Origin: a virus
Taxonomy: Duplodnaviria > Heunggongvirae > Uroviricota > Caudoviricetes
DNA length: 35,493 nt
Direction: 5' to 3' (one strand)
IMG/VR virus record: IMGVR_UViG_2529293246_000006
The translations under genes were made by a program, and so were the position numbers. Under the pieces are notes generated by a model. It was given only the letters and a program-made list of their open reading frames with translations, did no database searches and was not told where the DNA came from. Positions 1-35,493 of this stretch are shown here, piece after piece. Each line of letters starts with the position of its first letter. Within the stretch, counting starts at the first letter, position 1.

Positions 1-390
1 TTACTCCTTTTTCCCTGTATCGGCATCAGGTTCGCCATCAAACAGTTTGCCCTGCATCCGATCCAGTTCTTCTTTTCTGACCCGCTTCACCACGCTGTAA
101 ACCCACTGTAGTGAAACACCAAATTTGCGGGCCAGTTCGTGATGGTTGCGCCCGTCAAACTCCAGGAAAATTTCCCGGTCGCGCTGGCTGACCTTCCAGA
201 CCATGCCCATCGGAAAATAGACGTTTTGCCCACCCCAGACCTGCATCATGCGGTTCGCGACGGCCTGACCAATCTGGTCGGCAACTGCGGGTTCGATATC
301 AATAATCTCGCGGACAGTCTCAGAGGTATGCTGTGCCAGTTCCACCAACAGTTCCGGCCCTTTACTACGAAACTGATTCAGGTCGCTCAT
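1..390 (-). CDS. mor: Mor/C-family transcriptional activator (middle operon regulator-like), 129 aa
   Basis: ORF 1..420 trimmed to the internal ATG at 390 (MSDLNQF...), which gives the 129-aa size typical of Mor. That ATG overlaps the upstream gene's stop as ATGA. C-terminal HTH-like region; family assignment is from memory. Confidence 0.75.
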   Translation of the reverse strand: MSDLNQFRSKGPELLVELAQHTSETVREIIDIEPAVADQIGQAVANRMMQVWGGQNVYFPMGMVWKVSQRDREIFLEFDGRNHHELARKFGVSLQWVYSVVKRVRKEELDRMQGKLFDGEPDADTGKKE

Positions 391-815
391 TGCTTCACTC
401 CCGCAGCTCTGCGCTGCCACTTCTTCAGTTTCTCAATCACGCTACTTGCCTGCTCATTGCTGAGCCAGCGTAACGCGCTGATTCCGGTTTCCCGTTTAAC
501 CCACAGCGCCAGCGCCTGCTCTGAACTGTCACGGACGATGCCTGCGGCAGCCATTTCAAGCCATAGCGCACGGATTTTCTTTGACTGCGGATGGCTGTCG
601 AGCGGTAAGCCGGACTTGGCTTTCCCGGCAGGCTTAATGCGAAAGCCTTTCTTTTTCATTGATTCCAGCACGCGGTTTAGCTGTGGGGTATCCATCCCTT
701 TGGTTGAGGCTTTGCCGGTCAGCCCCTGTAGCATCTGGCGGTAGGTGTCCTCATCCATCTGGAGGTCGCTGCGGGCAATATGAATGAGTTGAATAAGACG
801 CTGCTTAGTCATCAT
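387..815 (-). CDS. gemA: GemA-like protein (Mu gp16 family)
   Basis: ORF 387..1004 trimmed to ATGATG at 815..810, preceded by an AGGAG Shine-Dalgarno. Protein starts MMTKQRLIQLIHIARSDL...; sits immediately upstream of mor as in Mu. Family assignment from memory. Confidence 0.6.
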   Translation of the reverse strand: MMTKQRLIQLIHIARSDLQMDEDTYRQMLQGLTGKASTKGMDTPQLNRVLESMKKKGFRIKPAGKAKSGLPLDSHPQSKKIRALWLEMAAAGIVRDSSEQALALWVKRETGISALRWLSNEQASSVIEKLKKWQRRAAGVKQ

Positions 816-1016
816 TGCCACTCCTTTTACCTGCGCCACCGATATAGTCGACATATAAAGGAAGCGCGACAGGCCAGCACAGGAACATAACGGCCCAACT
901 GATCCAGTGTCCGGTACCGCTGTAACGTGAGTAAAACCCTGAACGGCGGTGCAGTTCAGCAGTACACCACCCCACGAGACCATACCAGAACAAGGCACAT
1001 ACAATTGATTCAGCCA

Positions 1017-1706
1017 TCATAAGCCACTCCCCAGCTTCCGCTGTTCCTGCCCGCTGACAGGCTGATGTAGACGGACGTTTTCTCCCTCTCTGTAACCGAT
1101 GTGGCGGGACATGTCCGCGTCACGGGATTTACCGGCTTTGCGGCCAGAGGTTGTTCCTGAATCAGGGTATTTTTGTTCAAGCCAGAGGTTTGCCAGCTCC
1201 CGTTCTTCGCGGGACATAGCAAATAAATGAACCTCACTACGCACGGCCAGAACCCATCCTTCGGCAAATTTGTCACCACGGCTGGTCTTGGTCGTGTTTT
1301 TGATTCTTTTATTCTGCTGTCGAATATAGTTTTTACGGGCCATGATTAACTGTCTGGCCAGTACCTCCCATGTATATGAGGCCAGTTCAACCCGGTCTTT
1401 ATTACCGTAAAAGCCAACGCCGGGTTTAAAGCCGGAGTGAATAATAGACTTAACGCCAAATGCCACCTGGATAATATCCAGCAGACCCAGCATATAACGC
1501 GGCGGATTAACGCTACCTGCAGCCCAGTAGTTACTGACGCTTTCATCAATATCACTGAGTGCGAGGTCAGCCTGGGTGATGTTATAGGCCTGCATCAGTT
1601 TCTGGGCGCGTTGCAGTGCCAGTGCCGCTTCATGGGGGTTATCGGATTTAGCCAGCGCAAGTAGCTTTTTTAACTTCTCCAGCAGCTTTTCATTATTCTG
1701 CGGCAT
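1017..1706 (-). CDS. early protein with DUF2786-like N-terminus
   Basis: 229-aa ORF. N-terminal LLEKLKKLLALAKSDNPHEAALALQRAQKLMQAYNI matches the helical motif I associate with DUF2786 phage proteins. ATG at 1706. Confidence 0.55.
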   Translation of the reverse strand: MPQNNEKLLEKLKKLLALAKSDNPHEAALALQRAQKLMQAYNITQADLALSDIDESVSNYWAAGSVNPPRYMLGLLDIIQVAFGVKSIIHSGFKPGVGFYGNKDRVELASYTWEVLARQLIMARKNYIRQQNKRIKNTTKTSRGDKFAEGWVLAVRSEVHLFAMSREERELANLWLEQKYPDSGTTSGRKAGKSRDADMSRHIGYREGENVRLHQPVSGQEQRKLGSGL

Positions 1707-1989
1707 AAGTCACCCCCAGGCGTTCGGCAAGGCGTTCCAGCTTTTTCTGCTTATGAAAATCAATCATCAGGCCCATCCCGTTTAGGCGGAACTGTTCAAT
1801 TATGATTTCAACGTCAGCCAGTTCGCCTGCCAGATCAACTTCATTGCCCAGTCCGTTCATGTTGCGGGCAGCAGCAGCGGCCAGTTCGGCAGCTTCTTCC
1901 ATCAGCTTCAGAGCCTGAGCTTCTGGGCCGAAGGTTTTGAGGGCCAGATTGTAGATCGTCGAACGGTTATATAATTTCATGCCTTTCAT
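1693..1989 (-). CDS. small MazG-like all-alpha NTP pyrophosphohydrolase (putative)
   Basis: 98 aa. Contains LKLMEEAAELAAAA...DLAGELADVEIIIEQ, resembling the EExxE...ExxD metal-binding helices of MazG/HisE-type pyrophosphatases. Assignment by motif only. Confidence 0.4.
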   Translation of the reverse strand: MKGMKLYNRSTIYNLALKTFGPEAQALKLMEEAAELAAAAARNMNGLGNEVDLAGELADVEIIIEQFRLNGMGLMIDFHKQKKLERLAERLGVTYAAE

Positions 1990-2004
1990 CTTATCTTCCC
2001 CAAA

Positions 2005-2277
2005 TCAATGGCGTGATACGCTGATAACTTTCACGTGGCCGTCCTCAGTAATTTCCAGCTCGTACAGCGGCGGCATTTTTCTCAGGTGGTCACTGGTGGC
2101 GTGAAGAACGTAAATGGCCTGATCTAGGCCATTTGTTGCTACGATGGCGTGTGAAGCCATGCTGATTAATTTGATTAATACCTGCCGGATATGGTTGGGA
2201 TTTTCACAACCACATTCACTGATATATTCCGCGACAATTTCACGGGTCCGTTTTTCGGCTTCTTTTGCAGTAATCAT
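2005..2277 (-). CDS. hypothetical early protein (90 aa)
   Basis: ORF in the early operon; ATG at 2277 overlaps the upstream stop (ATGA). Confidence 0.5.
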   Translation of the reverse strand: MITAKEAEKRTREIVAEYISECGCENPNHIRQVLIKLISMASHAIVATNGLDQAIYVLHATSDHLRKMPPLYELEITEDGHVKVISVSRH

Positions 2278-2462
2278 TTCTTTGCCTCACAAGGGATGAA
2301 TTCCATGGCCGGGACTTCGGTGTAGTAATGCTGGCTACAGTGTGGGCATACCAGCGTGATGAGGACGGCTGGTACGCGGTACTTACCGGAGGAAATGACG
2401 CTGGCGTCGCTGAACTTCAGGGTGGTGATACCTTTCTGGCAGTTGATACATTTGATGGACAT
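2274..2462 (-). CDS. small zinc-ribbon protein (62 aa)
   Basis: Two Cys pairs (CINC ... CPHC) about 35 residues apart, typical of a zinc ribbon. Sits in the early accessory region. Confidence 0.5.
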   Translation of the reverse strand: MSIKCINCQKGITTLKFSDASVISSGKYRVPAVLITLVCPHCSQHYYTEVPAMEFIPCEAKK

Positions 2463-2540
2463 GATTTATTCCTTAATGCTGTTTTCGGCGTGCAGAAGCC
2501 CACGGCACTGACGCCGAAATAAAAAGAAATTGAATTAAAA

Positions 2541-3152
2541 TTAAATGGCAGCGATATCTAACGGAATATTAATTAGCTTCCCGTGTTTATCTTTCTCCCG
2601 GAAATTAATATAGGTTTTGGACATTGCCACCTGCAGTGATTCCGATATGGCCTCCATTGCCCGGTTCCAGCGCTCGTCCTGAATCTTGACGCGGCGCAGG
2701 GAAAGAATACGTCCGGTATTAAGCTGGCCCTCTTTGTCCACCTGAAAAGCATCGCTGATGATGGCCCGCAGGTTGGCGTTCGCGCCTTCCGACCACTCGG
2801 TGACGCACTCGTCTATCAGGTCTTTGGCAATCTGCAGCTCTGGCCCGAAGGTCAGGGTTTCCTGCACGCGGATGGTGATCTGCTGAGCACCGTCGAAGCT
2901 GCTGAAGGTCACGTTGCCTTTGGCACCGCCACGCGTTCTGCCGTACTTCTCGGCCACAAGGTCAAGCCAGGCATAGCACTCGTCAAAGGCACGACGCTTG
3001 AAGTCACTGAGTTCATCGCGTTTAACCTTCGCGGCGACAACCTGTTCTTTAACGAAAGAGTCCATCGCAAGGTCATAGTCAGACACCTGGTCAACCGGCA
3101 CCAGACGCCCCTTGCGGTCTTTCATGTAGTTTTCTTTATTTACTTCGCTCAT
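2541..3152 (-). CDS. conserved early protein of Mu-like phages (possibly DUF3164 family)
   Basis: 203-aa ORF in the semi-essential early region between the B-like ATPase and gemA. Family guess from memory; no similarity to Mu Gam noted. Confidence 0.45.
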   Translation of the reverse strand: MSEVNKENYMKDRKGRLVPVDQVSDYDLAMDSFVKEQVVAAKVKRDELSDFKRRAFDECYAWLDLVAEKYGRTRGGAKGNVTFSSFDGAQQITIRVQETLTFGPELQIAKDLIDECVTEWSEGANANLRAIISDAFQVDKEGQLNTGRILSLRRVKIQDERWNRAMEAISESLQVAMSKTYINFREKDKHGKLINIPLDIAAI

Positions 3153-3169
3153 CTCTGTTCACCTTATGG

Positions 3170-3439
3170 TTAATGTAACGACTCTGACCAGGTAATACGG
3201 CAGCCATGCAACTCAAAGACACCCTGACGGAAGCGCCCTGAGCCGTCATGGCCAACATGGGTATAACTCGCTTTGCCCTGCTCCAGCAGGCGGGCACAGT
3301 GCCCGTTGCGGGCGATACGGATAACCGGCTTACTGCCAGCAATCATGACGCTCTGCACGGTAGTGTTCATGGCGTTGAGCGCCATAATGGCGGACTGCAC
3401 CTTGTTCATCTGCTGGTTGATATCGGCGATGGATTTCAT
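3170..3439 (-). CDS. hypothetical small early protein (89 aa) at the kil position
   Basis: ORF immediately downstream of the B-like ATPase (stop at 3442), the position Kil occupies in Mu. No recognisable motif. Confidence 0.45.
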   Translation of the reverse strand: MKSIADINQQMNKVQSAIMALNAMNTTVQSVMIAGSKPVIRIARNGHCARLLEQGKASYTHVGHDGSGRFRQGVFELHGCRITWSESLH

Positions 3440-3441
3440 GC

Positions 3442-4608
3442 TTAAACTCCTTTGACGACGTCGGCGTTGACCTGCGGGACCCCGATTTCAGCAGCCAGAT
3501 TCATGGCGGCTATCACCAGGTTACTGACGGCCAGCGGATACAGCAGGCTGACCATGCTTTTACGGCTACTACCCAGATTGCTCAGACGGGCGCGGATGGC
3601 TTCCACTGCGCTGGCGTCCATGATGTCGGCCAGCTGCTTACCGGCACGTTGCAGTTTGAACGTCAGAAACTCTTCGAGGCTGTTGTCCAGCGGCAGCAAT
3701 TCAACCAACTCGCAGCGCTGGACGACCTCACGGACTTCCATGTTGCGTTCGGACAGTTTGTCTGCCAGTTCAGGCTGGCCAATCAGCACGATGGACAGCA
3801 GTTTTTTGAAGCCGGACTCCAGTTCGAAGAAGCGTTTAAGGTGCTTCAGCGTCGGAATGGGAAGGCTGTGGGCCTCCTCAATCACCAGAACGTGGCTGAA
3901 ACCCGCCTGACTGCTGTCCTTCAGGACTCGGTGCAACTGGCGGAAGCGGGCGTCCTGGCTGCGTTTGATACTCTCCAGCGGCGCGATGGTGCTGATGATG
4001 GCCTCGGCGATAGCTGCCGCCTTCAGGGTTTTGCCCTTCACGTCGTTGTCTTCCATGGCGATGATGTATGGCTCGATTACAATCACCGGCGCGTTCTCGC
4101 GGTTGACGCGTTCAATCAGGTCGCGGCGCAGCGTGGATTTACCCGCACCGGACTCGCCGATAACCGCCAGAAAGCCACCATGGCGGGCGGTCTGGAACAG
4201 CGCCTCACGCACGTAGCGGATATCCGGCGTGGTGAACACATCGTCCGCGCCCTGCATGGCTTCATCGGCGAACGGATCACGGAAAAGGCCAAACGCTTTT
4301 TTGGTTGCTGGAAATAACACCTGCTTTTTGAGTAACATGTTCTCTTCCTCACTGAGGTTGGTTTTATCGGTAGTACCCGCTGTACGGGGCGTGACAGCGC
4401 CCTGTGCAGCATCAAAACTTTTCACTGTATCAATCCCCTTACTTTCCAGATACAACGCCAGACGCTGGCGTACCTCTTCGGGGCTGGTGCGTGGCCACTC
4501 GTTATGGTTCACAATCTGGGCCAGCGTGGCCTCGGAAACGGCGACGGCTCTTGCCACCACCGCCTGCGGGATGCGGGCCTCTTTCAGTTGTTGCTTCAGT
4601 ACCAGCAT
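3442..4608 (-). CDS. transposition ATPase (MuB-like AAA+ target DNA activator)
   Basis: 388 aa. Walker A GESGAGKST and Walker B VLVIEEAH. Directly downstream of the transposase. Strong GAGGAGG Shine-Dalgarno before the ATG at 4608. Confidence 0.85.
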   Translation of the reverse strand: MLVLKQQLKEARIPQAVVARAVAVSEATLAQIVNHNEWPRTSPEEVRQRLALYLESKGIDTVKSFDAAQGAVTPRTAGTTDKTNLSEEENMLLKKQVLFPATKKAFGLFRDPFADEAMQGADDVFTTPDIRYVREALFQTARHGGFLAVIGESGAGKSTLRRDLIERVNRENAPVIVIEPYIIAMEDNDVKGKTLKAAAIAEAIISTIAPLESIKRSQDARFRQLHRVLKDSSQAGFSHVLVIEEAHSLPIPTLKHLKRFFELESGFKKLLSIVLIGQPELADKLSERNMEVREVVQRCELVELLPLDNSLEEFLTFKLQRAGKQLADIMDASAVEAIRARLSNLGSSRKSMVSLLYPLAVSNLVIAAMNLAAEIGVPQVNADVVKGV

Positions 4609-4618
4609 GCCTTCCTCC

Positions 4619-6388
4619 TCAGTTACCGTTAACGATGCTGATAACGCTGTTGCGGGCCGGAGTGGTCAGGGTAACCATCACCTCATCCAGCGCGGCTTCA
4701 GGTACGCCATCCGGGTACTGCGCCGTTAACTGGCGGTAATGTTCCGGCGTCCAGATATGGCCGTTAGCGCCAAACTTCTCGCGCAGGGCTTTCGCCGCCT
4801 CCACATGGGTCAGCGGACGCTGCTCAATACGCGGCCCGCGCACGTCTGAAGCCTGACCGCGCTTCGGCATATAGGCCGGAAGCGTGGTGTCGTCGATATG
4901 TTTGTACGGGTCAAGTCGCCCGCCGAACGGCAGCGCCTTCGCCTTGCGTGCAGCAGCTGCATCGGTGGCGTTATCGGTGCCCGTAACCAGCTCTTCGATT
5001 TCTTTTGCCGCCGTCTGCGCCGGGGTCTCCGGCAGGGCTTTGTAGTTTTCGCCAAATACCGCCGCGTTTTCGGCAAAGCCGAACTCGTTCTTTCTGACCT
5101 CCTCGACCAGGAAGAACGTCTCGTGACCGTCCTCACCGGTCAGCACCACCTGCGCCACATCGCTGCGCCACGGGTTACGGGTAATCATCAGTTTTTCGCC
5201 GACCAGTACGCCCGGTACCGTCGAAACGTCAAACTCATTGCCCCGGAACGAGACGCGCAGTTTTGGTGTGACCTTACGGAGTTCCGGTGCGGCCACCGCC
5301 AGTTCGCGGCAAACCTCAACGGATGGCGCTTTTTTCAGCTGGTCAGCAGTAATCTTCAGCCAGATATCCGTGCGGGTTTTACCGTGGCGGCTGTGGACCG
5401 CCGTGGCGTTAAAGTGGCTGCGCCATTTCACCGCCAGTGCGTTCAGTTCGTCCAGGCTATGAACCGGCTGGAATTTGAGACCCGGCTCCAGTTTACGTTC
5501 GATAATGTCACGGGCCTTTTCCACCTGCCCGGTGGCGCGGGCGTTATGCGGCTTGTGCGCTATCAGATTGATGCCCAGCGAGCGGCACATGTTTTTCGTC
5601 ATGCCAGCGGTGTTCGCCGAACCGGGATCAAGGTAGAGTATTTTCGGCACGCCGTGCAGCACGTCCGCGCCGCCGCGCTCCTGCATGGCGTTGATAAGCA
5701 CAGAACAGAGGTTCTCACCAGATTCCGCACCCATCACGTACTCAACGTAAATCCAGCCGCTGGTATGGTCGGTAATCTCGTAACTCCACACGCGGTCACT
5801 GGCGATGCGGGCGATGTTGGCAGGCTTGTTCTTGTAGAACTTCGAGCTGTCCATCACCTGCAACCCTTTATGGCCGTTGCTCAGGTAGTAAAGCGTACAA
5901 AGTGAGGCATCAATCTCCCAGACGTGATTGGGATGCAGGCTGGCCATCTCGGACGACGGGGCCGGTGCGTCAAGCTGTTCCGGGTGCAGACCATAGTTCC
6001 GCAGGGCGCGGCTGATGGTATCCTCGGACAGCGGGAAAAACTCGCCTGTGGCCTCGTCCGTTCTGCCAGCAGTGATAAAGCCGTTTGACCGCAGGGTCTC
6101 CACCGCATCCGCGATGGAATACAGGCGCTTACCGTTCTTACGGGTGGCCTCGCGCAGCGTGGCAGATATCAGCGCGGCTTCGTCGCGGCTCAGGGCACTG
6201 CGCCCGGCATCGGCGCGTTTTTTACGTTTGTCAGTCACTGATACCTCCTTCAGCTTGCGCAGCAGGGTGGCGCGGGAAATGCCCAGTTCGGCGCAGGCGG
6301 CATCATATATCGCACCACGCTTACCATGCCCCGCGTCACGTGCCGCGCGGGCAACATAAACCAGTCGTTCAGTCAGGGCGGCACTCAT
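4619..6388 (-). CDS. DDE transposase (Mu/BcepMu-type, integrase-core fold)
   Basis: 589 aa. N-terminal HTH region, candidate catalytic Asp residues in HVWEIDAS and YLDPGSAN, followed by a conserved Glu region. Sits just upstream of the ATPase as in transposable phages. Confidence 0.85.
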   Translation of the reverse strand: MSAALTERLVYVARAARDAGHGKRGAIYDAACAELGISRATLLRKLKEVSVTDKRKKRADAGRSALSRDEAALISATLREATRKNGKRLYSIADAVETLRSNGFITAGRTDEATGEFFPLSEDTISRALRNYGLHPEQLDAPAPSSEMASLHPNHVWEIDASLCTLYYLSNGHKGLQVMDSSKFYKNKPANIARIASDRVWSYEITDHTSGWIYVEYVMGAESGENLCSVLINAMQERGGADVLHGVPKILYLDPGSANTAGMTKNMCRSLGINLIAHKPHNARATGQVEKARDIIERKLEPGLKFQPVHSLDELNALAVKWRSHFNATAVHSRHGKTRTDIWLKITADQLKKAPSVEVCRELAVAAPELRKVTPKLRVSFRGNEFDVSTVPGVLVGEKLMITRNPWRSDVAQVVLTGEDGHETFFLVEEVRKNEFGFAENAAVFGENYKALPETPAQTAAKEIEELVTGTDNATDAAAARKAKALPFGGRLDPYKHIDDTTLPAYMPKRGQASDVRGPRIEQRPLTHVEAAKALREKFGANGHIWTPEHYRQLTAQYPDGVPEAALDEVMVTLTTPARNSVISIVNGN

Positions 6389-6391
6389 GGG

Positions 6392-7300
6392 TTATGCCTC
6401 CTGCCCGTTAATCTCTGGCGTCGGGTCAGTCAGCCATGAAGGGGCGGCGTTGCCTGTCGGCTCGTCCGGCAGGTCAAATGTGGAGCGTAGGCTACGCGCG
6501 GTGCTTTCCAACTGGCAGACCAGACCGGCCATAAAGTCTCTGGGGGTATCAATCATATTTTCAGCACAGTATGCGCACAGGGTCTCAAAGGCGCTGGACA
6601 GTCGAACGGCGATGGCAGATTCCGCCTCAACCGCTAACGCTGTAACTTCCGCACGCAGCTTCTTCACCTCTTCGTCAGGCTTGGGCGGCTGGATACGGGA
6701 TTTCTTCTCCAGTTTTGTGGAGAGCGAGTCGATTTTTTCGTTTTTGTCGGCAAGCACGCGCTGTTGTGCTGCGTTGGTTTCGCGGGCTTCACGTAGGGCT
6801 TGACGCAATTCTCTACAGCTCATGCGGTCGACATCATCTAGTTTCAGACCCGCTACAGTGCCACCATCAGCCAGTTCAGCGAGAGATTCATCATCTTCAG
6901 TCATCAATTCAAAAAGTTTGGATTTACCCAAATGTGCCAACGTTGGCACATTTGATTTCAGTGCGGGGGATAAGTATTTAGTCGATGCTTGCATCATCCG
7001 CACAGAAGTTCGGTATGGTAAGCCCAACTCATTTTCAAGAATGTTAATAAATTCCCCGTGCGGCTCATTTTCTTTAAGAATTACAAGGCGCTTACCTGCT
7101 TCCAGCATCGCCTCAGCACTCTGTGCCATATAAAACCGTGTTTCGTGAACAATACGATCACGTTCATACGGCAGACCATCACCGAACTGCTGCATGATTT
7201 CGAGGCGATGTTCGGTCATGGCATTAAGACTAACGTTGAGGCCATCACTCAGCGGAGCATCTTCCATTAGTTCAACTGGTTGTGATTTTGTGCGTCCCAT
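6392..7300 (-). CDS. hypothetical early protein (302 aa, coiled-coil rich)
   Basis: ORF with an AAGGAG Shine-Dalgarno before the ATG at 7300. Central region is Glu/Lys/Ala-rich and looks coiled-coil. No family recognised. Confidence 0.5.
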   Translation of the reverse strand: MGRTKSQPVELMEDAPLSDGLNVSLNAMTEHRLEIMQQFGDGLPYERDRIVHETRFYMAQSAEAMLEAGKRLVILKENEPHGEFINILENELGLPYRTSVRMMQASTKYLSPALKSNVPTLAHLGKSKLFELMTEDDESLAELADGGTVAGLKLDDVDRMSCRELRQALREARETNAAQQRVLADKNEKIDSLSTKLEKKSRIQPPKPDEEVKKLRAEVTALAVEAESAIAVRLSSAFETLCAYCAENMIDTPRDFMAGLVCQLESTARSLRSTFDLPDEPTGNAAPSWLTDPTPEINGQEA

Positions 7301-7309
7301 TTCAACTCC

Positions 7310-7615
7310 TTAGCGACTACCAGCCATAACACGCTGGTTGATTTCATTAATACGATCCTGCGCCCGCGCCATTTCGGTACTGTGCGCCATGGCGATTTGT
7401 AAGAGCTGGACTCCAGGGGCAAAACGCCCGTTATCCAGTTTCAGGGCCAGTCCTTCTTCGATAAGGGTATTGAGCGCCCGATTGATATTCGCCGGGGACT
7501 CGCCCAGAGCTGACGCCAGCTCGCCGTTAGAAACACCGTTCAGAGCGTGACCGCGTAAAGCCTTAAGGACACGCAAAATACGGGTACCTGAGCTTGATGT
7601 ATTTGGTTTACTCAT
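7310..7615 (-). CDS. winged-HTH transcriptional regulator (IclR/MarR-like N-domain)
   Basis: 101 aa. RILRVLKALRGHALNGVSNGELASALGESPANINRALNTLIEEGL looks like an HTH. Its start overlaps the ner stop (ATGA). Confidence 0.5.
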   Translation of the reverse strand: MSKPNTSSSGTRILRVLKALRGHALNGVSNGELASALGESPANINRALNTLIEEGLALKLDNGRFAPGVQLLQIAMAHSTEMARAQDRINEINQRVMAGSR

Positions 7616-7836
7616 GACGCCTCCTTGAGGATGCCGGGGGTAACTTCTTTGCCTATTGCGACCGAAAGGTCTCGCAAAATCCGATAAGTCAAACGACCGC
7701 GTGGAAGTTCGCTTTTGCCTGCCCAGCGGCTGACAGCCTGGGTGACTGTTCGTGGCTCATAGCCCGCGTTAAGCGCGAACTGGCGCAAGCTACTGCCTCT
7801 TTCAACCAGCCGTGCCCGAACTTGTTGTTTGTTCAT
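7612..7836 (-). CDS. ner: Ner-like DNA-binding protein
   Basis: 74 aa from the ATG at 7836. ...LRQFALNAGYEPRTVTQAVSR... resembles the Ner/Nlp family. First gene of the minus-strand early operon, divergent from the repressor. Confidence 0.7.
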   Translation of the reverse strand: MNKQQVRARLVERGSSLRQFALNAGYEPRTVTQAVSRWAGKSELPRGRLTYRILRDLSVAIGKEVTPGILKEAS

Positions 7837-7924
7837 ATGCACCGTGTTCCTGTTGGGTTATGATGTACTCTATTGGGTCTATTGTACGCACCCGAACGGG
7901 TATGTCAAATTGAGATATGTTCAA
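7837..7924. promoter_or_regulatory. divergent ner/repressor intergenic control region (putative operators and promoters)
   Basis: 88-bp spacer between divergent start codons. Contains TGTTGGGTTA and TATTGGGTCT direct repeats and a CCCGAACGGG inverted repeat. Function inferred from position only. Confidence 0.4.
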
Positions 7925-8335
7925 ATGAGTATAAAAGAGAGATTGCGCGAAGCGATGGATGCTAAGAGTCTGACAATTAAGGCATTGTCAGAGTTGTCAA
8001 AAATTCCATATCGCTCACTTCAAAACTATCTGCGTGGAGAGAGAGAACCTAATGCAGAGGCTCTTGTTGCGCTAAGCACCCATTTGAACATATCAATAGA
8101 TTGGCTACTTACTGGTAAAGGGGAAGCTGTTGGGGTAGAGAAAGCACAGCCAGCTAATCAGGAGCAGCATTTCAACCAGTCTGATCTGAAGTTATTGGAG
8201 CTGCTCAACCAACTGGAGCCAGAGGTGCGAAAAGATTTGCTGCGAGGCGCTGAGGAAAAACAGCGAATGATTGATATGGAAAAACAGCTTAAGGAGCTGT
8301 CCGCAGCGTTCGAAAGATTAAAAAATACGGGTTAA
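7925..8335 (+). CDS. XRE-family HTH repressor (putative prophage maintenance repressor)
   Basis: ORF 7829..8335 trimmed to the ATG at 7925 (MSIKERLREAMDAKSLTIKALSELSKIPYRSLQNYL...). Classic XRE HTH with a C-terminal helical domain. Divergent from ner. Confidence 0.7.
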   Translation: MSIKERLREAMDAKSLTIKALSELSKIPYRSLQNYLRGEREPNAEALVALSTHLNISIDWLLTGKGEAVGVEKAQPANQEQHFNQSDLKLLELLNQLEPEVRKDLLRGAEEKQRMIDMEKQLKELSAAFERLKNTG

Positions 8336-8370
8336 TCTGTTCCTATTAAGAACATTAGAGGTATAAGGAC

Positions 8371-8904
8371 ATGACTATGCGCAAATTATTTTTACCGTTG
8401 ATATTTGTTTTATCTGGGTGTGGAGATAATACCGATCCTGCTGATACGTCCACCACAGCTAAGGAGCACGCGGTTTTTAGCGTTGAAACAGATAATCCGG
8501 TTGTAAATCGCGAATTACCGTTTATTCGCCAACAACTCCCCGGCCTGGATAAGTACGCGGACAGTTTTGAAAAAGTCGAAGTATCCGAGGATAGCGAACG
8601 TCCGGTGACAACGGTGCAGTTTCATATTAAAGACGAAAATAATATTCCAAGTGACTACATAGCCTCTGGTCATAATTGTTATTTGTTCATATCAAATAAT
8701 GCCCACGAAGTGAAAATATCTAAATCAGCATGTCAGGCTGTTTTTTTCGATAAAACGGATGTTCCTGGTGGAGACCTGACCGTGAAACTTGATAAGGAAA
8801 AAGTTCCTATGACAGATGATGGTAAGACCCCGCGAGCAGGTTGTTTGAAAGCTTATTCACCAGAGCCAGATAATGATTATTGGACTTGTCCAAGGCAGGA
8901 TTAA
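8371..8904 (+). CDS. lipoprotein of unknown function (moron; candidate superinfection-exclusion protein)
   Basis: 177 aa. N-terminus MTMRKLFLPLIFVLSGCGDN is a lipoprotein signal peptide with an LSGC lipobox. The gene and flanks are visibly AT-richer than neighbouring phage genes. Confidence 0.65.
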   Translation: MTMRKLFLPLIFVLSGCGDNTDPADTSTTAKEHAVFSVETDNPVVNRELPFIRQQLPGLDKYADSFEKVEVSEDSERPVTTVQFHIKDENNIPSDYIASGHNCYLFISNNAHEVKISKSACQAVFFDKTDVPGGDLTVKLDKEKVPMTDDGKTPRAGCLKAYSPEPDNDYWTCPRQD

Positions 8905-8911
8905 ATGTTTA

Positions 8912-8934
8912 GGTGGTGCTGCAGATGCACCACC
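8912..8934. terminator. hairpin between convergent lipoprotein and dam genes (putative bidirectional terminator)
   Basis: GGTGGTGC (8912-8919) / GCACCACC (8927-8934) stem with a 7-nt loop, flanked by A/T-rich runs. Lies between the stop at 8904 (+) and the stop at 8952 (-). Confidence 0.45.
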
Positions 8935-8951
8935 ACCTTTAACTACCTCTT

Positions 8952-9722
8952 TCAAAAATTACAAATTACCAGCTCTTTCTTCGGGCTGGGTTTGCCTGTT
9001 ACCTTAAGGTTGTAGCTGATATCAACCGACTGCATGTTCAGACCGTTGAATACCTGCCGCATTTCCGGGATATCGTTCACTGATATAATCATCTTCCCTT
9101 TGATCCTTCGCGCTAAATCTGCCATGTGATCATAGTTTTCCAGCCCGAACTCCACACCATAGCCTTCCGTTCCCCAGTACGGTGGGTCACAGTAGAACAG
9201 CGTATGCGGGCGATCATATCGCTCTATGCACTGGTGCCAGTCCAGATGCTCTATCAGCGTTCTCGACAGGCGCAGGTGTGCCATCGACAGTTCTTCCTCA
9301 ATACGCAGCAAATTGAAGCGCGGCGCACTGGTTGTAGAGGTACCGAATGTGTGATCGGCGACCTTGCCGCCAAATGCCTGTTTCTGCAGGTAGTAGAACC
9401 GGGCCGCCCGCTGAATGTCGGTGAGCGTTTCTTCCGGCGTATCCTGCAACCATTTGTAAATCTGACGGCTGACCAGCGCCCATTTGAACTGGCGAATAAA
9501 TTCTTCCAGATGATGCTTGACCACCCGATAGAGGTTCACCAGTTCCCCGTTGATATCGTTAATGACTTCGGTCTTGCTGGGAGTCTTTAGGAAATAGAGC
9601 GCAGCTGCCCCGCAGAACGGCTCCACATAGCAGGTATGGGCCGGAAACAATGGTAAAATATGCTTCGCCAGACGACGTTTACCGCCAATCCATGGGACGA
9701 TGGGTAAAGATTGTTCTTTCAT
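8952..9722 (-). CDS. dam: DNA adenine methyltransferase (Dam-like, N6-adenine D12 class)
   Basis: ORF 8952..9746 trimmed to the ATG at 9722 (MKEQSLPIVPWIGGKRRL...). FCGAA (motif I) and the DPPY catalytic motif (YCDPPYWGTEGYG). Opposite strand to its neighbours. Confidence 0.85.
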   Translation of the reverse strand: MKEQSLPIVPWIGGKRRLAKHILPLFPAHTCYVEPFCGAAALYFLKTPSKTEVINDINGELVNLYRVVKHHLEEFIRQFKWALVSRQIYKWLQDTPEETLTDIQRAARFYYLQKQAFGGKVADHTFGTSTTSAPRFNLLRIEEELSMAHLRLSRTLIEHLDWHQCIERYDRPHTLFYCDPPYWGTEGYGVEFGLENYDHMADLARRIKGKMIISVNDIPEMRQVFNGLNMQSVDISYNLKVTGKPSPKKELVICNF

Positions 9723-9769
9723 TATCCGTAAGCCTTTTGCAATCAATGAAAATATGGCAGGCTAGTCTG

Positions 9770-9781
9770 GTCTCGCGAGAC
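9770..9781. promoter_or_regulatory. perfect 12-bp palindrome GTCTCGCGAGAC upstream of dam
   Basis: Seen directly in the dam/holin divergent intergenic region, about 50 bp upstream of the dam start. Candidate operator; function unknown. Confidence 0.3.
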
Positions 9782-9969
9782 TGACTGAACCCTGGTCGGC
9801 TCACAGTGCATACCTGTGGGTTGATGACCAGCCTGGTGTTACCGCACCGGGCTGGTCGTTCTTTCAAAGCCATCATGCGGTTCACGTCTGCATCCTCACT
9901 ATTAACGCTGTTTAAAATCCCTTTCCCCGACCATTTGTGATGCTGTCTCCACTACACAAGGAGACGCTC

Positions 9970-10320
9970 ATGAAAAACCTGAAAAAATTCATTCCCCCTG
10001 TTAAAAAGCCACGTCTCAGCGGCTGGCTGCTGACCGCTGTGCTGCTGCTCGGCACCATCGGTCTGGTATCGCCCCAGCAGCTGCCGGTGGTTGTCTACAA
10101 GCTATCACTCATCACGCTGGCGGCAGTATTGGGCTACTGGCTTGACCGTTCGCTTTTCCCCAAAGCCCGTCCCGGTCAGTACCTGAAGCATGATGACAGG
10201 CTGATGGCTGATGGTCGCTTCCCTGTCCAGACTGGCCTTCACCTGGTCTTTTCTGCTGCGCTAATCCGCCGTGCGCTGATTGTTGCTGCAGTCTGTCTGG
10301 CCGTAGCGATGGGGCTTTAA
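9970..10320 (+). CDS. putative holin (three predicted TM segments)
   Basis: ORF 9937..10320 trimmed to the ATG at 9970, preceded by an AAGGAG Shine-Dalgarno. Three hydrophobic stretches. Immediately precedes the endolysin. Confidence 0.5.
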   Translation: MKNLKKFIPPVKKPRLSGWLLTAVLLLGTIGLVSPQQLPVVVYKLSLITLAAVLGYWLDRSLFPKARPGQYLKHDDRLMADGRFPVQTGLHLVFSAALIRRALIVAAVCLAVAMGL

Positions 10321-32843: not shown

Positions 32844-33442
32844 TCACCACTCAATAATCACAATACCATTTTTACCGGAGCCGGATTTATTACTACTGTT
32901 AGCAGCAATCCCACCACCACCGCCCCCATAACCAGGCGCATCCAGACCCATCCCTGTAGATCCTCGGCCTCCGGGGCCGCCACCGTTGCCGCCGCAATTT
33001 GCCGAGTTGGCTGAACCGTCATCCCCCCAACCCAACCCCTGATTAACGTCTCCGCCAAAACCGGCTCCCGACGAACCACCGGATGTTGATGTGCCGCCAT
33101 ACCCATACTGACCACCAGTCGCGGAGAGATAAGAACCAAAAGAAGATGACCCACCGGATGCGCCATTACCTGTAGTTACGCCAGCACCAGCAGAGCCAAC
33201 GGTTACCGTAACGCTTGAAACGTCTGTGAGATCGAGAAGCAATTTCGAATATCCGCCACCGCCGCCACCGCCCCCGCGCTTTGTTGTATCGGTAGTCGAC
33301 CCGCCAGACGCTCCACCACCAATTACTGTCACCTGGCATTTTCGCCCTTGTTGGAGTGCCTCAGGAACGTTCCAGTTAGATACTCCAGGGGTGTTGAAAA
33401 CAACTATGTTTTGCAGGCCAAAGGCCGATGCTCCTAAACCAA
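32844..33442 (-). CDS. alternative tail-fibre C-terminal variable domain (Sv'-like), promoterless cassette, Gly-rich
   Basis: Minus-strand ORF reads ...FSKNLGLGASAFGLQNIV... across the right inversion site, in frame with the constant part (FLQNL) after inversion. Contains long Gly runs (GGGGGGGG, GGGGGG). Confidence 0.55.
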
Positions 33443-33456
33443 GGTTTTTGGAAAAG
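33431..33456. repeat. right inversion site (gix/hix-like), core AA at 33441-33442
   Basis: CTCCTAAACC-AA-GGTTTTTGGAAAAG is the inverted partner of the site at 31571-31596; 61 bp upstream of the invertase start. Confidence 0.7.
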
Positions 33457-33516
33457 CAGTTACACATAGCGAAATCTGCAAAAATCCTCCTACCGCGACA
33501 TAGAGGAGGAAAATTG

Positions 33517-34098
33517 ATGGCCGTCATTGGTTATATCCGCGTATCAACAATCGACCAGAACAGCGATTTACAGCGTAATGCGCTCACAAGCGCAAACTGT
33601 GACCGCATTTTTGAAGACCGTATGAGCGGAAAAGTTGCCAGCCGCCCCGGTCTGAAACGCGCTTTAAAGTGCGTTAATAGCGGAGACACCCTGGTCGTGT
33701 GGAAACTGGACAGGCTGGGGCGCAGCGTTAAGAACCTGATCGCACTGATATCAGAATTACATGAACGCGGTGCCCACTTCCGCTCTTTAACAGACAGTAT
33801 TGATACCAGCACTGCCATGGGGCGCTTCTTTTTCCATGTGATGTCAGCACTGGCGGAGATGGAACGTGAGCTGATCGTCGAACGAACACTGGCCGGGTTG
33901 GCAGCAGCCAGAGCACAGGGACGCATAGGTGGAAGGCCCAATGCATTAAAACCGCATGAGCGGGAACAGATTGGGAGACTATTGGCCAGGGGACATACTC
34001 GCCAGCAACTGGCCATAATCTACGGAGTGGGATTATCGACGCTCTATCGGTATTTTCCGGTAGATAGTCAGAGGAAGGATGAAGCGGTAGGATTGTAA
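33517..34098 (+). CDS. gin: site-specific serine DNA invertase (Gin/Hin/Pin/Cin family)
   Basis: 193 aa. MAVIGYIRVSTIDQNSDLQRNAL...GDTLVVWKLDRLGRS...SLTDSIDTS..GRFFFHVMSALAEMERELIVERT closely matches the Gin/Hin sequences I recall, including the catalytic Ser in VSTIDQ. GAGGAGGA Shine-Dalgarno. Confidence 0.9.
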   Translation: MAVIGYIRVSTIDQNSDLQRNALTSANCDRIFEDRMSGKVASRPGLKRALKCVNSGDTLVVWKLDRLGRSVKNLIALISELHERGAHFRSLTDSIDTSTAMGRFFFHVMSALAEMERELIVERTLAGLAAARAQGRIGGRPNALKPHEREQIGRLLARGHTRQQLAIIYGVGLSTLYRYFPVDSQRKDEAVGL

Positions 34099-34132: not shown

Positions 34133-34176
34133 CATTTATCTCACGGAAATGGGCGCATTTATCGCGCGGCGCATCA
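34133..34176. repeat. prophage right terminus with two transposase-binding-like repeats; phage DNA ends ...CA at 34176
   Basis: CATTTATC at 34133-34140 and 34156-34163. Read inward from the end, the terminus is TGATGCGCCGCGCGATAAATGCG..., resembling the Mu R end TGAAGCGGCGCACGAAAAACGCG...CGATAAATGCG as I recall it. Confidence 0.65.
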
Positions 34177-35493
34177 TTTCATGGTTACGCCGGTGATTAA
34201 ACCAATCACCGCCACTACCATCAGGTAATAGGCAGGCATCATCAGATTCTGCGAGCTTTCGACCAGCCAGGCCGCCAGTGTTGGCGTCAGACCGGCAACC
34301 AGCACCGAAATATTAAATGCCGCCGCCAGCGCGCTGTAACGGATATGCGTCGGGAACATCGCTGGCAAGGTAGAAGCCATAACGCCCGTAAAGCAGTTAA
34401 GGATCACCGCCAGCATCAGTAACCCGGCAAAAATCAGGCCGATGACGTTACTGTTAATCAGAATAAACGCCGGGATCGCCAACACAAACAGGGCAACACT
34501 ACCAAGTAGCACAAACGGACGACGGCCAAAACGGTCACTCAGCAAGCCCATCACCGGCTGGACAAACAGCATACCGATCATAATGGCGATAATAATCAGC
34601 ACCCCGTGGTCTTCGGAGTAATGCAGGTTATGCGACAAATAACTCGGCATATAGGTCAGCAACATGTAGTAAGTCACGTTGGTGGCAATTACCAGACCAA
34701 TACATGTCAACAGGCTGCGCCAGTGTTTGGTGGCAATCTCTTTAAACGAGACTTTCGGGCCATCCTGCAAACCTTCGCGGTCGCCCTGTTCCAGTTTATC
34801 GACATGCTGCTGGAACGCCGGAGTTTCTTCCAGCGCATGGCGCAGGTAAAGCCCGATAATCCCTAACGGCAGAGCAATAAAGAACGGAATACGCCAGCCC
34901 CAGTCGAGGAAGTTCGCTTCGCCGACAATGGTCGAAATTAACACCACTACGCCAGCACCCAGCACAAACCCGGCAATAGAACCAAAGTCCAGCCAGCTGC
35001 CCATAAAGCCACGTTTACGGTCAGGGGAGTATTCCGCAACAAATATCGACGCCCCGGTATATTCACCGCCGACCGAGAAACCTTGTGCCATCTTACAGAT
35101 CAACAGCAGAATCGGTGCCCAAATACCAATCGTGTCGTAGGACGGTATTAAGCCAATACAGAACGTACTGATCGACATAATCACAATAGTGATAGCGAGG
35201 ATCTTCTGGCGACCATATTTATCGCCCAACATACCAAAGAAGAGTCCGCCAAGCGGTCGAATCAGAAAGGGAACGGAGAACGTGGCAAGTGCAGCAACCA
35301 TCTGCACGCTGGGGTCAGCCCCCGGGAAAAAAACTTTACCTAATGCGTAAGCAACAAAACCATAAACACCAAAATCAAACCATTCCATTGCATTACCCAG
35401 TGATGCTGCGGTAATGGCTTTACGCAGTTTACCGTCATCAATAATGGTGACATCACGAAGGGTAATCGGTTTTACTTTTTTCCTTTTCAGCAT
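34174..35493 (-). CDS. proP: proline/glycine-betaine MFS transporter ProP, 3'-truncated by the prophage insertion (439 of ~500 codons)
   Basis: Protein starts MLKRKKVKPITLRDVTIIDDGKLRKAITAASLGNAMEWFDFGVYGFVAYALGKVFFPG..., matching E. coli ProP from memory. The frame ends ...GVTMK and then a TGA formed by the phage terminal TGA at 34174-34176. The C-terminal domain is missing. Confidence 0.8.
   Translation of the reverse strand: MLKRKKVKPITLRDVTIIDDGKLRKAITAASLGNAMEWFDFGVYGFVAYALGKVFFPGADPSVQMVAALATFSVPFLIRPLGGLFFGMLGDKYGRQKILAITIVIMSISTFCIGLIPSYDTIGIWAPILLLICKMAQGFSVGGEYTGASIFVAEYSPDRKRGFMGSWLDFGSIAGFVLGAGVVVLISTIVGEANFLDWGWRIPFFIALPLGIIGLYLRHALEETPAFQQHVDKLEQGDREGLQDGPKVSFKEIATKHWRSLLTCIGLVIATNVTYYMLLTYMPSYLSHNLHYSEDHGVLIIIAIMIGMLFVQPVMGLLSDRFGRRPFVLLGSVALFVLAIPAFILINSNVIGLIFAGLLMLAVILNCFTGVMASTLPAMFPTHIRYSALAAAFNISVLVAGLTPTLAAWLVESSQNLMMPAYYLMVVAVIGLITGVTMK

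Follow-up and report, generated by a model that had tools for sequence, protein, structure and literature searches.

The 35,493 nt sequence of virus record IMGVR_UViG_2529293246_000006 (the window, meaning the whole stretch of DNA that was analysed) is that of a BcepMu-like (Bcepmuvirus) transposable prophage, and carries an orphan D12-class (alpha) DNA methyltransferase gene on its minus strand (nt 8952–9722, 256 aa; ATG at 9722, TAA at 8952–8954). The gene itself is of an already catalogued, routine kind. Upstream of it lies a conserved element with a covarying RNA structure on the strand opposite the methyltransferase, and this element is linked to com and to DNA-modification genes. Sequence comparison suggests that it appears to be an undescribed member of the class of cis-encoded regulatory RNAs, with a predicted small RNA of about 98 nt (nt 9769–9866, plus strand) that is divergent from the methyltransferase. 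On balance, and with modest confidence, the favoured reading is that of a late anti-restriction methyltransferase controlled by the divergent small RNA and its promoter.

Conservation of an element upstream of the methyltransferase gene

When 80 loci were gathered from bacterial genomes using the methyltransferase protein, conservation extended upstream of the gene, for up to ~190 nt, in 71 of them, in both gamma- and beta-proteobacteria. A covariance model of the element has a single match in the window (nt 9757–9869, plus strand; 85.6 bits, E = 1.7e-18), and in 83 of 90 sources, among them the phages B3, phiE125 and VP882, it finds one full-length copy, which in every case is divergent from the methyltransferase. 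The element is unannotated in hundreds of E. coli prophages, ST131 Phi2 among them, and in phages as well studied as B3, phiE125/phi1026b and VP882: no RNA annotation was present at its position in RefSeq or phage records, and literature searches for an RNA described beside com or methyltransferase genes returned nothing relevant. A search of nt 8800–10100 of the window against Rfam 15 gave no relevant match at E ≤ 10, and the best Rfam match among eight relatives was to ctRNA_pGA1, in one relative, at 29.5 bits, which is below threshold (gathering score 45).

Two other explanations of the element were considered and rejected. A small protein gene would fit neither the 1 nt indels nor the lengths of the element, which range from 111 to 120 nt and do not keep to a multiple of three. 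A transposition or packaging site is excluded by the occurrence of the element in the non-transposable phages phiE125 and VP882. Small hypothetical open reading frames (ORFs) overlap the element in B3 (ORF45 and ORF46; L087, nt 2067–2292) and in VP882 (gp36; L089, nt 2072–2404), and these may be annotation artefacts.

Folding, strand and covariation

As plus-strand RNA, nt 9757–9866 fold into three predicted hairpins at −58.6 kcal/mol (z = −6.4, with none of 200 shuffles as good), compared with −41.4 kcal/mol (z = −2.4) for the complementary strand. The same asymmetry was found across 49 dereplicated sequences, where the mean folding energy was −54.6 kcal/mol opposite the methyltransferase and −44.3 kcal/mol on its own strand, the opposite strand folding better in 44 of the 49 (p = 1e-8).

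The predicted RNA begins with stem-loop SL1, which is formed by a palindrome (nt 9770–9781), and continues with SL2 (nt 9795–9825), a 12 bp helix of GUCGGCUCACAG and CUGUGGGUUGAU that includes four G·U pairs. There follow SL3 (nt 9826–9857), a GC-rich hairpin of 14 bp, and a U-rich tail, GUUCUUUCA (nt 9858–9866), all on the plus strand; SL3 and the tail together are read as an intrinsic terminator. A further helix, P0, may pair GUUC (nt 9858–9861) with GAAC (nt 9787–9790) on the same strand. In relatives, P0 connects the segment after SL1 with that after SL3, just ahead of the U-run, and the 9 nt following it contain 4–7 U in 73 of 83 alignment rows.

Compensatory changes were found in each of the helices SL2, SL3 and P0. 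Within SL2, for example, one pair is A-U in 47 sequences and G-C in 29, and many cells of the alignment hold G·U pairs, which would be A·C mismatches if read on the other strand. All 13 pairs of SL3 have changed on both sides, as have five of the six pairs of P0, where 95.6% of cells are paired. In an alignment made by MAFFT only, P0 and SL2 showed 95.6% of cells paired, compared with 81.5% in shuffles, and both-side changes in 10 of 13 pairs, a result reached by none of 500 shuffles. Because the MAFFT alignments shifted the register of SL1 and SL3 from one clade to another, and RNAalifold run on them yielded no more than P0, P2 and a part of P1, per-sequence folding and the covariance model were used instead. 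The alignment fitted to the model, in which counts are tilted toward structure, had 86.8% of cells paired (70.2% in shuffles, 33–50% in slid controls) and both-side changes in 30 of 34 pairs, amounting to 448 such cells compared with 127 (none of 500 shuffles as high).

These results bear on an opposite assignment, in which the functional RNA is a long 5′ leader of the methyltransferase transcript, attenuator- or riboswitch-like, with CUGUGAGCC pairing with GGCUUACGG to mask the start site. The upstream sequence has 9 nt of complementarity to the methyltransferase initiation region, which lies at nt 9726–9738 on the minus strand and comprises the Shine-Dalgarno sequence AAAAGG (nt 9733–9738) and a conserved GGCTTACGG (nt 9726–9734) directly 5′ of the ATG. 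In com-less loci, the sequence directly 5′ of the start codon is GGCTT(A/G)C(A/G)G; as RNA (GGCUU(A/G)C(A/G)G) it resembles the 5′ arm of SL2, with which it co-varies only loosely. The initiation region is closer to the SL2 arm of its own locus than to those of other loci (6.66 vs 6.11 matches, 0 of 1000 permutations), as a leader would predict, but the co-variation of the two is inconsistent between clades (L056, L060 and L065 deviate) and the test is confounded by the relatedness of the loci. Roughly half of the loci (beta-proteobacteria, phiE125, VP882 and B3) have a co-directional upstream gene that ends 0–17 nt from the element, so that a leader is probably transcribed there. Set against this are the folding energies, which in 44 of 49 sequences are better for the other strand and give the sense strand of the window a z-score of only −2.4, the pattern of G·U rather than A·C pairs, and the lack of any riboswitch match in Rfam. 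A sense leader as the functional RNA is, on this evidence, quite unlikely, although it and the opposite-strand RNA could both be true.

Promoter and terminator of the predicted small RNA

The start of the RNA was placed from a −10 element, and its end from the terminator-like hairpin and U-rich tail. The predicted promoter has an extended −10, TGgCAGGCT (nt 9755–9763, plus strand), and a −35-like hexamer, TTTGCA (nt 9736–9741, plus strand), which is 16 bp upstream of the −10 and overlaps the methyltransferase Shine-Dalgarno region of the other strand. Among 77 distinct sequences, the −10 hexamer has A at position 2 in 76 and T at position 6 in all 77, while positions 3–5 vary, giving 12 variants; a TG at −15/−14 is present in 41. 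At a spacing of 16–18 bp, 47 of these 77 relatives match TTGACA in four or more of its six positions, and ST131 Phi2 has TTTACA. The conserved −10 thus seems to behave as a genuine sigma-70-type promoter element. At the other end, the hairpin read as a terminator is strong, with a U-tract of moderate strength at best, and most of the homologous blocks listed from other E. coli genomes stop exactly at nt 9866.

The ATG of the methyltransferase is only 35 nt from the −10 of the predicted RNA. The promoter scan detected nothing like a sigma-70 promoter for the methyltransferase itself, which suggests that its expression depends on an activator.

About 35 nt past the U-rich tail is a second conserved block, CACTATTAACGC(T/C)GTTTAAAATCC (nt 9890–9925, plus strand), that includes TATTAA (nt 9900–9905). 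It is also present in L001, L004–L006 and gamma-proteobacterial loci, where it remains beside the RNA despite the insertion of cargo genes before the holin gene, and may represent the late (lysis) promoter region. The interval from the RNA and this block to the holin gene is a cargo hotspot (L001, nt 5367–5933; L004, nt 6903–8225; L005, nt 5915–6910), with one extra ORF in KP12, three in ST131 Phi2, and two in 2014C-3075, one of which is annotated 'ABC transporter ATPase'.

Such an arrangement could be explained if the hairpins were punctuation at the level of DNA and transcription only, with a divergent promoter in competition with that of the methyltransferase, a terminator shielding the late operon, and a transcript without function. 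The promoter-like pattern and terminator-like end of the element are what this would predict, in gamma-proteobacterial prophages the terminator stands just ahead of the conserved late-promoter-like motif, and the precedent of momP2 in phage Mu has been described as promoter competition only (PMC3378877). However, termination would not require SL2 or P0, both of which show compensatory changes, with conserved loops and junctions across beta- and gamma-proteobacteria, and the palindromic apex of SL1 is also maintained. Punctuation alone is therefore considered unlikely.

The 12 bp palindrome

A perfect 12 bp palindrome upstream of the methyltransferase was noted in the sequence-only reading of this DNA. 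The palindrome, GTCTCGCGAGAC, is found exactly at nt 9770–9781, 48 nt upstream of the ATG, and has no other match in the window at up to one mismatch. Perfect palindromes of 12 bp number six in the window compared with 9.5 ± 3.1 in shuffles, so that the palindrome alone is not significant, and its meaning comes from comparative data only. It is exact in six related prophages, and its distance of 48 nt to the methyltransferase start is kept despite insertions before the holin gene.

In 40 of the 49 dereplicated relatives, the apex of SL1 is perfectly palindromic over 8 nt or more (median 12 nt), with at least 14 different core hexamers, whereas SL2 and SL3 have ordinary loops and a longest palindrome of 4 nt (median). 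A self-duplex of SL1 is predicted at −26.9 kcal/mol, compared with −3.6 kcal/mol for the hairpin. The cores do not track the phylogeny of the methyltransferase: TCGCGA occurs at 73–100% identity, CTCGAG at 87% and ATCGAT at 86%. That the palindrome is the recognition site of the enzyme itself was considered and rejected, both because the core does not follow the phylogeny and because the variant GCGCGC has no adenine in the core hexamer.

The sequence-only reading had suggested a test of whether the phage repressor binds the palindrome. As an operator it could serve any dimeric protein (the repressor, a Mor/C-type activator or a controller protein), and perfect dyad symmetry lying over two putative promoters is in keeping with this, as is the absence of a loop, which would be expected of a DNA site or cruciform but is odd for an RNA hairpin. 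The same palindrome, however, is found in prophages with repressors that are only 26% identical over 69 aa, and the at least 14 core hexamers among close relatives vary independently of the methyltransferase phylogeny. Its single copy in the window shows that it is not a motif shared among late promoters or operators, and it lies inside an RNA structure supported by covariation. An operator is thus improbable, and the palindrome is probably the first hairpin of a structured small RNA and not a free-standing operator.

Linkage to DNA-modification genes

In a reverse test, the SL2 motif was used for an exact-pattern scan of IMG/VR; of the 120 loci returned, 111 contained the full element. A methyltransferase homologue (41–100% identity) was divergent from it within 600 nt in 98 of the 106 loci with enough flanking sequence. 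The informative exceptions carry Com followed either by a beta-class methyltransferase (PF01555) or by a P-loop/GNAT protein. As these exceptions combine Com with other enzymes, the element, found with D12 and beta-class methyltransferases and with a GNAT-type enzyme, belongs to com/mom-type cassettes generally and not to one enzyme. Com (PF10122) also lies between the element and the methyltransferase in some beta-proteobacterial loci. The covariance model found no copy in Mu, including the region upstream of com.

Three individual loci are of separate interest. On one IMG/VR contig (L207), the element and Com are followed, 332 nt downstream of the RNA 5′ end, by a 389 aa protein with P-loop and GNAT acetyltransferase regions, which could be a Mom-like acyl-type DNA-modification enzyme of new architecture. 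In the annotation of E. coli AF22 (L006, nt 4952–5716), the methyltransferase gene contains an internal stop and is labelled a pseudogene; the element upstream is intact (86.7 bits). In NZ_CP155528.1, nt 1795117–1795307 match only nt 9676–9866 of the window (the 5′ end of the methyltransferase gene and the element); no feature is annotated there, and the match may be a cassette remnant.

The methyltransferase and its relation to Dam

The description of the gene as encoding a complete D12 methyltransferase with FCGAA and DPPY motifs was borne out. The protein matches PF02086 at 97.7 bits (cutoff 22), with residues 19–240 corresponding to profile positions 1–246 of 253, and matches phrog_56 at 3e-100. 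Its FCGAA (residues 36–40, motif I) precedes DPPY (residues 179–182, motif IV), which is the motif order of the alpha class. An identical protein, named 'DNA adenine methylase [Enterobacterales]', is found on more than 1000 contigs (WP_000664222.1 in strain Ecol_542), and similar methyltransferase DNA is present in 636 of 5426 complete E. coli genomes, or about 1 in 9. Its lack of a cognate restriction gene, also stated earlier, was upheld: its neighbours are a lipoprotein-like ORF and the holin gene, and no restriction endonuclease gene was found beside it by Pfam and PADLOC searches of the neighbours or in the RefSeq annotation of relatives.

The enzyme is 64–68% identical to the methyltransferases of phages B3 (ORF48), phiE125 (gp27), phi1026b, VP882, phiHAP-1, KS9 and MuM16-1. 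The enzyme of ST131 Phi2 is 84% identical to it (with PhiKM as stand-in), and those of Photorhabdus 84–86%. By similarity, the protein is thus a member of the B3 ORF48/phiE125 gp27/M.EcoMIV subfamily, which has the Dam fold but is distinct from Dam. The B3 ORF48-type subfamily replaces Mom in com-mom-type modules of many Mu-like and other temperate phages. In B3, a Com homologue is followed by the adenine methyltransferase ORF48 in place of Mom (Drozdz et al., PMC3299994); in the same report, ORF48 falls outside the 1000 sequences closest to Hia5, and its activity was stated not to have been demonstrated (PMC3299994).

The label 'Dam-type' given to the enzyme in the sequence-only reading stands at the level of the superfamily only. 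The fold family and motif order are shared with EcoDam, T4 Dam and DpnM (PDB 2G1P, 1Q0S and 2DPM), and the protein narrowly passes the broader subfamily model TIGR00571 (117.2, cutoff 114.85). It fails the Dam equivalog model NF008152, with 69.8 bits against a cutoff of 441. The residues of EcoDam that reportedly contact the bases of GATC are K9, L122, R124 and P134, and these align to P, K, A and S in the enzyme of the window. None of the 85 members of the family conserves the four contacts, while the replacements P and K are conserved in 85. The DNA-reading beta-hairpin also differs, being AFGGKVADHTFGTSTTSAPRF in the window and YGYNGLCRYNLRGEFNVPFGRY in EcoDam. Judged from these residues and scores, the methyltransferase is not a Dam orthologue.

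By phmmer, the enzyme matches EcoDam at E = 1e-14, DpnM at 5e-16 and T4 Dam at only 0.01. M.CbeI (7M6B), identified as an N4-methylcytosine (m4C) enzyme (PMC8616854), matches at E = 3.8e-13, about as well as EcoDam. With the GATC-reading residues absent and the match to M.CbeI as good as that to EcoDam, the enzyme may act on a sequence, and even a base, other than those of Dam, and the database names 'Dam' and 'methyl-directed repair DNA adenine methylase' claim more than the evidence supports.

Two observations on GATC sites were made separately. There are none in nt 9723–9969, so control of the Mu type, by Dam and OxyR, is not indicated. Over the whole window GATC is scarce, with 76 sites where base composition predicts 135.

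It is highly improbable that the enzyme is a further GATC Dam of the host kind, with a part in epigenetic regulation or mismatch repair in the lysogen. The basis for this would be membership of the Dam superfamily, the TIGR00571 score just above cutoff, and the name 'methyl-directed repair DNA adenine methylase' in the KP12 record. Apart from the NF008152 result and the lost contacts, the orthologues argue against it: M.EcoMIV, in Phi2 of ST131 strain EC958, could not be assigned a motif, and the lysogen did not transcribe it (PMC4659465), and the probable orthologue plu3449 of Photorhabdus luminescens TT01 was expressed at <0.001 × gyrB, with no recognition site assigned (PMC6092372). The same reports disfavour the earlier proposal of an epigenetic role in the lysogen. 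The other proposed role, protection of phage DNA from restriction, is the likeliest, given 64.5% identity to B3 ORF48, which stands at the place of mom behind Com (PMC3299994).

Proposed function of the small RNA and its promoter

In the favoured reading, the enzyme would be made during lytic growth and would methylate phage DNA before packaging, so protecting it from restriction in the next host. In the lysogen, and until late lytic growth, the gene would be held off by the small RNA and promoter unit. The −35 of the RNA promoter would lie over the ribosome-binding region of the methyltransferase, and its −10 a few bases from where the methyltransferase promoter must lie, with repression acting through competition for RNA polymerase, as for momP2 and Pmom in Mu. 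The RNA would end at the terminator-like hairpin just before the late/lysis genes. Where the module sits inside the late operon, with an upstream gene ending 0–17 nt from the element, the RNA would be antisense to read-through late mRNA, and could pair with such transcripts.

Several points weigh against this reading. The promoter in the window is imperfect (CAGGCT at the −10, a 4/6 match at the −35), the U-tract GUUCUUUCA is weak, with no call there in a consensus terminator scan, and a simple hairpin does not account for the loop-less, perfect apex of SL1 in most lineages. The 448-cell covariation counts derive from the model-fitted alignment, with the tilt noted above. The reports of silence in lysogens concern orthologues and not this exact protein, and the orthology of plu3449 was taken only from its gene length (771 bp), InterPro domains and prophage location. 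Transcription of the RNA, repression by the RNA and/or its promoter, the function of the enzyme, and the start site and 3′ end of the RNA are likewise what we infer.

A stronger proposal, which is tentative and leans toward the doubtful, is that the element represents a new, widespread family of phage small RNAs and an integral third component of com/mom-type cassettes, acting via RNA and not merely as a promoter. The palindromic 5′ hairpin may drive RNA–RNA pairing or dimerisation, the RNA would set the timing of an otherwise toxic enzyme that modifies DNA genome-wide, and in com-less cassettes it might partly replace Com. If the element does specify a regulatory RNA, it would provide a concrete reason why methylome studies find prophage methyltransferases silent, and would carry the principle known from mom in Mu, where a divergent promoter competes with that of a toxic modification gene, over to a whole family of cassettes with different enzymes.

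Comparison with known systems

The closest parallel in regulation is the com-mom module of Mu. There mom, a toxic and late gene, is regulated in more than one way, and one such layer is the divergent, overlapping promoter momP2, which captures RNA polymerase in the absence of the activator C (PMC3378877). The present module would share with it a late, potentially toxic modification gene under layered control and, as predicted here, a divergent, overlapping and competing promoter; relatives of the module also carry Com (PF10122) and a start codon sequestered in a hairpin. It differs in encoding an S-adenosylmethionine (SAM) methyltransferase and not Mom, in the absence of com (no zinc-ribbon Com ORF was found between nt 9723 and 9969) and of GATC in the control region, and in its position away from the right end of the prophage. 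In Mu, the gap between gin and com is only 94 bp and has no match to the element.

In B3, the element is upstream of com (ORF47) and on the opposite strand, at 52.8 bits, and the ORF48 protein next to it is that with 64.5% identity to the enzyme of the window. Unlike the window, B3 keeps com, and its module is co-directional within the operon of tail genes. ST131 strains carry the syntenic orthologue, M.EcoMIV, in the same type of prophage, with the same palindrome and element, but ST131 Phi2 has only ~81% nucleotide identity to the window. M.EcoMIV and plu3449 are, like the present enzyme, D12 orphans, and the two were unexpressed or barely expressed in lysogens (PMC4659465, PMC6092372); the papers describing them make no mention of an adjacent RNA.

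The non-specific adenine methyltransferases Hia5, Hin1523 and Nma1821, which were compared by description only, also replace mom in Mu-like prophages; these enzymes are broadly protective against restriction (PMC3299994), and unlike the present gene are located at the mom position, at the right end.

At the level of the RNA, the element resembles cis-encoded antisense RNAs, including plasmid counter-transcribed RNAs (ctRNAs), in being, as predicted, a small structured RNA that ends in a terminator and is opposite the 5′ region of its target gene. P22 sar, lambda OOP, P1 c4 and Tn10 RNA-OUT are comparable cis-encoded antisense RNAs. It differs from the known examples in belonging to no Rfam family, and in that overlap with the methyltransferase mRNA is only putative in this prophage.

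Prophage setting

The left part of the window is an early operon (nt 1–7842, minus strand) that includes genes for Mor (nt 1–420), GemA, an ExeA/B-like protein (nt 3442–4608), a DDE transposase (nt 4619–6388) and, up to nt 7842, small helix-turn-helix (HTH) proteins. It is followed on the plus strand by an HTH_3 repressor gene (nt 7925–8335) and a lipoprotein-like ORF of 177 aa (nt 8371–8904), and then by the minus-strand methyltransferase gene. A 247 bp gap, which the sequence-only reading had included in its methyltransferase region (nt 8941–9969), separates the methyltransferase ATG from the start of the holin gene (nt 9970), the first of the lysis/late genes, which run on the plus strand to the Gin/Hin-type invertase gene (nt 33517–34098). 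The methyltransferase module is thus inverted, between the immunity region and the lysis cassette. The gene had been described as opposite in strand to all surrounding late and lysis genes. It is opposite to these and to the two plus-strand genes at its left, but shares its strand with the early operon, so an antisense orientation to every surrounding gene is only partly right.

The position of the methyltransferase is constant in this prophage family, always in the interval between repressor and holin genes and on the opposite strand, while the adjoining cargo genes vary. The synteny holds in divergent BcepMu-like prophages of E. coli, including that of ST131. The related phages KP12 and PhiKM are present in GenBank, and over 1.7 kb around the methyltransferase (nt 8300–10000) the window has 100% identity to an E. 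coli Ecol_542 prophage that shares its layout and interrupts an aldolase gene.

A near-consensus sigma-70 promoter (TTGACA, 16 bp, TACAAT; nt 7881–7908, minus strand) points toward the early operon and away from the adjacent repressor gene, and is presumably the early promoter/operator region. The lipoprotein-like ORF, which has a signal peptide followed by an LSGC lipobox, gave no Pfam or PADLOC match and only a partial match to phrog_10002; its GC content is 0.42, compared with 0.58 in the late region. It is convergent with the methyltransferase and resembles a moron cargo gene. The 47 bp gap between the two contains an 8 bp GC-rich hairpin, GGTGGTGC / GCACCACC with loop TGCAGAT (nt 8912–8934), which may be a bidirectional terminator, and which the consensus scan did not flag.

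At the right end, a host gene for a major facilitator superfamily (MFS) transporter (nt 34174–35493, minus strand) begins 75 bp past the invertase, which agrees with the earlier statement that no mom-like gene would fit there. A glycine-rich, tail-fibre-type ORF (nt 32844–33527, minus strand) adjoins the invertase gene, and this pair suggests an invertible host-range segment akin to the G region of Mu.

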